Source of the DNA: a virus
Taxonomy: Monodnaviria; Loebvirae; Hofneiviricota; Faserviricetes; Tubulavirales; Inoviridae
Length of the DNA: 9,828 bases
Direction: 5' to 3' (one strand)
Virus record (IMG/VR): IMGVR_UViG_2529292910_000001
The notes beneath the pieces were generated by a model. That model had not been told where the DNA came from, made no database searches, and was given only the letters and a program-made list of their open reading frames with translations. Both the position numbers and the translations under genes were made by a program. Shown here piece after piece: positions 8,424 to 9,170 of this stretch; the first letter of the stretch is position 1; every line of letters begins with the position of its first letter.

Positions 8424-8870
8424 TCAGAGAAATCCACACAGACAACAGAATAAACCTGTTGTTATCCAGACCCTGAATTCTGAGAAGTTGCGCTCATGAT
8501 TCCCACCCCGTTTAATGAACAGAATCCGAACATAAAGAAACAGGGTATAACCACGTCCTGGATAAATCAGATGAGACCAGACAAAAAGTATCAGCCGATT
8601 TAAAAAACGGAATAATAAAAAATCTTCCTCGTGTCCAAATTTTTCCAAAAAATGGAAAGCCTCAGAATAAGAAGGGAAAGATAAGGCGCATCCCGGATCT
8701 AAATGCCACAAAAAACCAACTGCTTTAAATTCCGGGAATTCCTCATAATCACAAAGAACAGGAGAAGGATAAAAGGACTCAGCCAGAACAAACCAACCGC
8801 CAAAAAGGAAAGTTTCGGTTATATTCAGCTTACGACGTAACACAGAAATATCAGGCGATTGCATAACCAA
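8424..8870 (-). CDS. Hypothetical protein (148 aa), aromatic-rich, in the gVII/gIX position
   Basis: Strong SD (AGGGGGAGG) 7 nt before the ATG, packed 13 nt after the upstream ORF, and no competing plus-strand ORF. Unusual composition (many F/W/C), which is partly expected from the T-rich coding strand, so the reality of the product is uncertain. Confidence 0.4.
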
Positions 8871-8882
8871 CCTCCCCCTCTT

Positions 8883-9170
8883 TTAACCAATATCCTCACA
8901 ACGGGAAATAAGACCATTGCAAAGCGAAATATAACGCGTCAAAACTGTCATTTCATAAGAGTCAAGACGAGCATAAGAGTCATTCAATAATTCAACACTA
9001 TGACGAAGACATGACCTGAAAAGATAAAGCCCCCTAAAATTATCTCCTGACTCAAAATCAATAACAGCCTGCTTATAAAGCTCAATAATAAGGTCTAGTT
9101 TCAGTCGAACAGAACCCGATTTACTGTGTTCTTCAAATGAAGAAATTGGTCGAATTGGACGAAAAGTCAT
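8883..9170 (-). CDS. Hypothetical protein (~95 aa) immediately downstream of gV
   Basis: ATG at 9168..9170 preceded by AAAGGTGG; an in-frame GTG at 9177..9179 is the track start. Composition looks helical/soluble. No motif recognised. Confidence 0.5.
   Translation of the reverse strand: MTFRPIRPISSFEEHSKSGSVRLKLDLIIELYKQAVIDFESGDNFRGLYLFRSCLRHSVELLNDSYARLDSYEMTVLTRYISLCNGLISRCEDIG

Follow-up and report, generated by a model that had tools for sequence, protein, structure and literature searches.

In the Ff filamentous phages (M13, f1 and fd) the interval between gV and gVIII holds gVII and gIX, whose products pVII and pIX are about 30-35 aa long, consist mostly of one hydrophobic membrane segment, are needed for the initiation of assembly and sit at the virion tip. 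A first-pass annotation of the inovirus DNA studied here reported two much longer ORFs in that interval and proposed that they occupy the gVII/gIX slot. Are they replacements for the two tip proteins, and if they are not, what are they and which genes stand in for gVII and gIX? The window, by which we mean the whole stretch of 9,828 nucleotides that was analysed, is contained letter for letter in the E. coli draft contig AIFZ01000020.1 of assembly GCA_000249675.2 (locus L020 below), and it carries an inovirus gene set on its minus strand from 3425 to 9828. The features on which the answer depends are the following:

3425-4705, minus strand: gIV, secretin
4708-5832, minus strand: gI/Zot
5850-6137, minus strand: gVI (DUF2523)
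6158-7852, minus strand: gIII, 564 aa, with a long Gly-Thr repeat
7883-7966, minus strand: orf27, gene for a predicted 27-aa small hydrophobic protein between gVIII and gIII, the second gVII/gIX-type candidate
7986-8006, minus strand: hairpin resembling a terminator, with a T-run after it, directly downstream of gVIII
8014-8303, minus strand: gVIII, major coat gene including a long leader from the ATG at 8301-8303 (alignments; phrog_2186 virion structural protein, E=3.5e-21)
8306-8497, minus strand: g63, conserved gene for a predicted small membrane protein, positional gVII/gIX analogue (dN/dS 0.11-0.5; C-terminal part matches phrog_22498, E=4.9e-5)
8424-8864, minus strand: ORF146, apparent T6 frameshift allele of a lineage-restricted 117-aa orphan
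8504-8871, minus strand: insertion of ~368 bp (DNA alignment), missing from L010-L017, L001 and L002
8617-8622, minus strand: T6 homopolymer tract (T7 gives the common 117-aa product and T6 gives 146 aa; the 88-aa allele is in a T8-type frame)
8619-8864, minus strand: ORF146 codons 1-82, acidic and aromatic-rich N-terminal part, pI 4.5, common to all full-length alleles (alignment, composition)
8883-9170, minus strand: ORF95, 95 aa, conserved, predicted to be a cytoplasmic three-helix-bundle protein
9186-9533, minus strand: gV, single-stranded-DNA-binding protein, 115 aa, the upstream neighbour (Pfam PF02303 Phage_DNA_bind, E=2.2e-12; phrog_1199, E=2.1e-20)
within 3425-9828, minus strand: 3' end of gII (G2P_X_C)

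Both reported ORFs lie where they had been placed between gV and gVIII, and much else in their original description holds. The strong Shine-Dalgarno sequences and tight spacing are present (AAGGTGG 5 nt before the ORF95 ATG, which is itself 15 nt downstream of the gV stop, and GGGGGAGG 6 nt before the ORF146 ATG), the gene order of the interval is indeed unlike that of Ff, and the impression that neither product has a recognisable motif agrees with profile searches of Pfam, PHROGs, NCBIfam and PADLOC, in which ORF95 and ORF146 both had zero matches at E<=1. A third, 43-aa ORF (below) likewise matched nothing in Pfam, NCBIfam or the PADLOC defence-component profiles (E<=1 for PADLOC); its one match in these scans was to phrog_22498. 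The length of 148 aa given for the longer ORF is right only when it is counted from an upstream TTG at 8870; from its ATG it is 146 aa. On the reading that we favour, the gV-gVIII interval holds three genes, not two, and a fourth small gene follows gVIII.

The third gene of the interval is g63. In relatives a protein of 61-63 aa is encoded in the space from ORF95 to gVIII. In the window its codon 12 is TAA (8462-8464) where every relative has CAA, and E. coli DEC6D (L018) has the window's mutation; what is left of the frame is a 43-aa ORF with a GTG start (8306-8437). The fourth, orf27, differs from its L003 counterpart by nine synonymous and no nonsynonymous changes and is conserved in L011, L012, L014, L016 and L002. 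With a GRAVY value of 1.82 it fits the small hydrophobic membrane-segment trait, as does the C-terminal half of g63. Neither gene matches a minor-coat family in Pfam or PHROGs. Gene callers overlooked both of these conserved short genes here and in relatives (g63 is uncalled in L003-L009 and L020, and orf27 in every locus examined), so that the annotation of the interval needs correction. Judged by these comparisons, g63 and orf27 are the genes that encode the predicted small membrane proteins expected in an inovirus. The adjacent gVIII is also damaged in the window, where a 1-nt deletion in the T-run at 8285-8289 shifts the frame of the leader and leaves an open frame (8014-8244) with internal GTG/ATG starts only. 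In this prophage family that leader is conserved, unusually long and amphipathic (MSFKGFLSSVKEKVLSVKKSV), and it lies ahead of the signal peptide.

Could ORF95 and ORF146 nevertheless be functional replacements of pVII and pIX at the virion tip? Their tightly spaced position between gV and gVIII is what would be expected of such proteins, but they are three to five times longer than the Ff proteins and lack the single hydrophobic segment: ORF95 has a GRAVY value of -0.11 and is modelled as a three-helix bundle, ORF146 has an acidic N-terminal domain, and neither looks like a small single-span membrane protein. Presence in all related phages, a trait of pVII and pIX, is found for ORF95 but not for ORF146, which is absent from most otherwise complete relatives. 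The hydrophobic genes g63 and orf27, in contrast, are conserved and under purifying selection. Like Ff gVII and gIX they are small, with one hydrophobic segment and no signal peptide, and g63 is in the same gV-gVIII interval, although one of the two small genes here comes after gVIII and not before it. Their arrangement also matches that of the Vibrio phage VGJphi (Fibrovirus, AY242528), in which the order is orf112(gV)-orf81-orf44(gVIII)-orf29-orf493(gIII). There a small membrane protein precedes gVIII and one of ~29 aa follows it, and the annotation gives the two as putative minor capsid proteins. ORF95 and ORF117/146 have no counterpart in VGJphi, and its orf81 and orf29 have no significant sequence similarity to ORF95, g63 or orf27. 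We therefore consider a tip-protein role for ORF95 and ORF146 hardly credible, and it is g63, in the same interval, together with orf27 after gVIII, that are the positional analogues of gVII and gIX.

The first-pass annotation had suggested conservation, synteny and structure prediction as checks. ORF95 was present in all relatives examined (all of L010-L017, L001 and L002, the same loci from which ORF146 is absent), and its AF2 model has a mean pLDDT of 84, in contrast to an unusable value of 43 for the single-sequence model of ORF146. A search of 5.8 billion proteins found ORF95 homologues in 14 clusters by sequence and 18 by profile, all of them from E. coli filamentous prophages and 25-97% identical, and unannotated homologues lie at 9423-9653 in L002 and 9427-9711 in L001; among 50,697 phage records tblastn found none at E<=1. 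The invariant positions number fourteen, with C54, C84, C91 and the motif D-S-Y-E-x-T-x-L-x-R among them, and dN/dS is 0.13-0.5 at dS 0.1-0.8 (Nei-Gojobori). These patterns identify ORF95 as a genuine conserved gene under purifying selection.

The ORF95 model consists of three amphipathic helices (residues 11-40, 44-62 and 71-94) packed as an asymmetric three-helix bundle that resembles MIT domains (Pfam PF04212, found in VPS4, katanin, spartin and calpain-7) and TPR-like units. MIT domains bind helical MIM peptides in a groove between helices. The likeness is one of fold and not of family: Foldseek matches of the model to MIT proteins have E values of 0.05 or higher with 9-14% sequence identity, ORF95 has no Pfam family match at E<=1, MIT proteins are eukaryotic or archaeal and ESCRT-related, and the fold is generic. 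A search of PDB sequences returned only weak matches, to designed helical-repeat and TPR proteins.

With which part of the phage does ORF95 travel? A gene-by-gene comparison of pairwise identities across eight prophages, whose genomes are not independent of one another, gave correlations of ORF95 identity with that of gI (r=0.90), gVI (r=0.88) and gIII (r=0.84) that contrast with those for gII (r=0.23), the immediately adjacent gV (r=-0.03) and the repressor (r=-0.20). Individual pairs illustrate this in both directions. Relative to L003, the repressor, gII and gV of L001 and L002 are 84-95% identical and ORF95 is just 22-34% identical, whereas L010 and L014 have repressors that are 25-42% identical and ORF95 proteins that are 76-89% identical (in L014 the values are repressor 25%, gV 40%, ORF95 76% and gI 86%). 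By this measure ORF95 is part of the morphogenesis module, inherited together with gI, gVI and gIII, which favours a role tied to assembly over one in regulating replication or lysogeny.

A regulator would otherwise be a natural guess for a small, soluble, helical protein encoded directly downstream of gV. RstC, the antirepressor of the Vibrio RS1 satellite, is also encoded just after a single-stranded-DNA-binding gene. The co-evolution with the phage repressor that would mark an RstC-type protein is not seen in ORF95, however; its identity follows neither the repressor nor gII nor gV, the L001/L002 and L010/L014 comparisons run in opposite directions for the two sets of genes, and Pfam gave no HTH or other DNA-binding family match. 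We judge a lysogeny or replication regulator improbable on these grounds. ORF95 may instead be a small cytoplasmic protein-binding adaptor or chaperone in phage assembly, whose target could be, for example, a helical part of pI/Zot, or else the leader of pVIII with its unusual length and amphipathic character. Among the functions offered by the first-pass annotation, that of a lineage-specific morphogenesis protein thus gains support for ORF95 from its conserved frame, its dN/dS values and a divergence that follows the morphogenesis genes. Conserved, confidently foldable and inherited with the assembly genes, it is a concrete candidate for an assembly cofactor yet to be found in inoviruses outside the Ff group.

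ORF146 is a different kind of gene. It lies on the ~368 bp insertion, which is carried by the window, L003 and L009 and is flanked at both ends by alike stop/Shine-Dalgarno/ATG junctions, so that its boundaries are ambiguous by a few nucleotides. In L022 the insertion is linked to an L003-type left arm (gII-gV-ORF95), and the right arm is L011-like. The only homologues of the ORF146 protein (21% aromatic residues, 5 Cys) among 5.8 billion proteins, and again among 1.84 billion representatives, were its own two clusters. By blastn and tblastn the insertion matched none of 5,426 complete E. coli genomes and no phage or plasmid, by blastn-short and tblastx it had no similarity to other parts of the phage or to its relatives, and a PDB sequence search with ORF117 found nothing. 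A scan of GTDB species genomes gave as its sole match 19 residues in a high-GC Enterobacteriaceae MAG, which we rejected as a chance match out of context. The alleles of the gene are:

117 aa: T7 (seen in L009 and L022), about 129 contigs
146 aa: T6 (seen in the window and L003), about 11-12 contigs; the window protein is WP_001191650.1
88 aa: seen as protein, in a frame that fits T8, 1 contig
146 aa, double-shifted: P0029 (seen as protein), 1 contig
54 aa: a further deletion of one nucleotide, at codon 50, in E. coli DEC6D (L018)

About 90% of contigs keep the 117-aa frame, which stops just before the g63 ribosome-binding site; the 146-aa tail extends 74 nt into g63 in another frame, across its ribosome-binding site and start. 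Two haplotypes carry T6, and for both there is a version with T7 (P0024 and P0021). The draft assembly is an older one in which some homopolymer differences could be sequencing errors. Over the 1,090 nt compared, however, it has the same sequence as the Logan assembly of run SRR094971 (L021), and the T6 allele recurs in several other assemblies. The allele distribution thus indicates that ORF146 is a minority T6 frameshift allele of a 117-aa orphan carried on an insertion in one narrow E. coli prophage lineage, and its tail in the window would be a by-product of homopolymer slippage. Five DNA haplotypes differ by four nonsynonymous and one synonymous change plus the frameshift alleles (few substitutions in all), sites 16 (T/A/P) and 68 (E/D/Y/N) are multi-allelic, and there are five independent frame disruptions among about 16 alleles. 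The first-pass annotation had held that a frame not conserved in related phages, synonymous changes not favoured, or a real short gene overlapping the frame would count against its proposal. This is partly the case for ORF146, which is absent from most relatives, exists in frames of 117, 146, 88 and 54 aa, has the four-to-one ratio just given and runs at its 3' end over a real short gene.

Is it then a gene at all? The insertion might be junk DNA that happens to be open and was called through a chance Shine-Dalgarno sequence, as the want of any homologue or family match in the searches above, the excess of nonsynonymous changes, the five frame-disrupting alleles and the AF2 pLDDT of 43 would all allow. 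A stop-free run of 146 or more codons arose, however, in 0.5-1.2% of first-order Markov simulations of this T-rich sequence (P=0.005-0.012), which makes chance an unlikely source of the frame, though not overwhelmingly so. The Shine-Dalgarno match is well placed, codons 1-82 have the third-position T bias (0.50-0.51) and first-position G enrichment (0.32) of the phage's known genes while the other frames have 6-7 stops over the same stretch, and about nine-tenths of the copies retain the 117-aa frame despite its slippery T7 tract. No non-coding role is apparent for the insert either, since its DNA has no predicted structure beyond expectation (z=-0.3; best hairpin z=-1.4), no Rfam family and no promoter-like site or terminator; there is one weak terminator-like match at 8780-8799, region counts are within the range of shuffles, and repeats are unremarkable. 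We think it unlikely, on balance, that ORF146 marks no gene. Another suggestion, that the T tract is a functional switch (phase variation or recoding) between C-terminal tails and that the 146-aa form, by reading through the g63 start, modulates minor-coat synthesis and virion output, draws on the occurrence of T6 and T7 in DNA and of an 88-aa allele in the T8-type frame, on the origin of T6 on two different haplotypes, on the U UUU UUU slippery heptamer that can be read in the T7 allele and on the 74-nt overlap with the g63 ribosome-binding site and start. Seven bases, however, make a short tract for efficient slippage, other disruptions (P0029, L018) lie outside it and resemble plain decay, and the two tail frames are alike in composition with neither standing out as evolved, so we give a switch very little credence.

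We favour the view that ORF117 is probably an accessory gene, a young orphan that virions do not need. Its product would be a cytoplasmic protein, dispensable for virion production, whose effects, if any, would be felt by the host or by competitors, and the gene is presumably co-transcribed with gV-gVIII, as it is on the same strand and no promoter- or terminator-like site was found in the insertion beyond the weak match above. The ORF117/146 protein may even be non-functional altogether, given the four-to-one substitution ratio, the five frame disruptions and the low pLDDT. To our knowledge most small genes of dif-site filamentous prophages have no assigned function; such prophages affect fitness and virulence in E. 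coli, Yersinia and Vibrio, and ctxAB is an accessory cargo of CTXphi. YpfPhi and CUS-1 carry function-less ORFs at their genome ends (PMC4266046). Like these cargo genes, ORF117/146 is lineage-specific, without homologues and part of a dif-integrating filamentous prophage, but it lies inside gV-gVIII and not at a genome end, has no promoter or terminator of its own that we could detect, and has the composition of the phage backbone. It resembles a moron in being a lineage-specific insertion between conserved genes, and differs from one in that the insert lacks its own promoter, has only a weak terminator-like match and has a third-position T of 0.51 like its neighbours; the overall composition of ORF146 and the insert also matches the neighbouring genes. 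The allele series offers a compact and clear case of what is probably a very young orphan gene, with a reading frame that has not yet become stable, and should be useful for the study of phage gene birth and decay.

Taken together, the most satisfactory explanation, which we regard as reasonably probable, is that ORF95 is a conserved morphogenesis-module protein, ORF146 a frameshift allele of an accessory orphan, and g63 and orf27 the small membrane proteins of a remnant prophage. A bolder combination, in which ORF117/146 is a newly born or captured gene whose T tract acts as a heritable or translational switch among three C-terminal tails, with the 146-aa form tuning virion production across the g63 start, and in which ORF95 founds an undescribed MIT-like assembly-cofactor family co-evolving with the Zot-type ATPase pI, seems to us very improbable. 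The interval is typical inovirus gene-content variation within a decaying prophage, and none of these findings changes current concepts of inovirus biology.

The decay is evident outside the interval as well. In intact relatives the prophage is positioned between hipBA and a fimbrial usher remnant; in L020 an IS1 stands where the intact L003 has a portion of hipA, the attL side, the repressor gene of the phage and about 590 nt from the 5' portion of gII (window 9550-9828 and further; L020 8016-8785). With the repressor and this part of gII replaced, the window's prophage is, to judge from its gene content, a non-replicating remnant, and ORF95, ORF117/146, g63 and orf27 are therefore unlikely to work in phage production in this strain. 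At the gIV-distal prophage end there is a dif-like site, AGTGCGTATAAGGTATATTATGTTAAAT (window 3095-3122, minus strand), with three mismatches to E. coli dif, and its position fits XerCD-mediated integration at dif beside hipBA.

Several other features of the window and its relatives deserve mention. The gIII gene encodes a very long Gly-Thr linker in a perfect (GT)n repeat of variable length, with products of 499 to 564 aa among relatives. Beyond the prophage, window 74-619 (plus strand) and 861-1211 (minus strand) include a 181-aa CI/HTH_3-type repressor, after which L020 has, beyond the window, a Ner-like HTH_35 gene and then a transposase of Mu type; this region is most likely a Mu-like prophage, and the fimbrial subunit gene beside it is 116 aa long here and 176 aa in relatives. 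The stretch of about 1 kb that separates the end of the prophage from the fragment of the fimbrial usher (2400-3425) has no counterpart in L003 and contains short ORFs, among them one at 2729-2908 that, by eye, we take to resemble an AraC-type C-terminal fragment. Literature searches found descriptions of YpfPhi and CUS-1 and none of the present prophage family. NZ_AP045060.1, a record of 9,613 bp that is listed as a plasmid of E. coli, is 84% identical to the gII/gV region and may represent a related filamentous phage in its replicative form. In L001 and L002 (RefSeq NZ_AP045053.1 and NZ_CP076689.1) PGAP leaves unannotated a 400-600 bp gV-gVIII stretch that encodes an ORF95 homologue and one or two small membrane proteins. 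Finally, the related S21EC prophage (L002 10216-10386) has, between its orf25 and gIII, an extra 56-aa ORF with no equivalent in the window, a further case of lineage-specific insertion within this operon.
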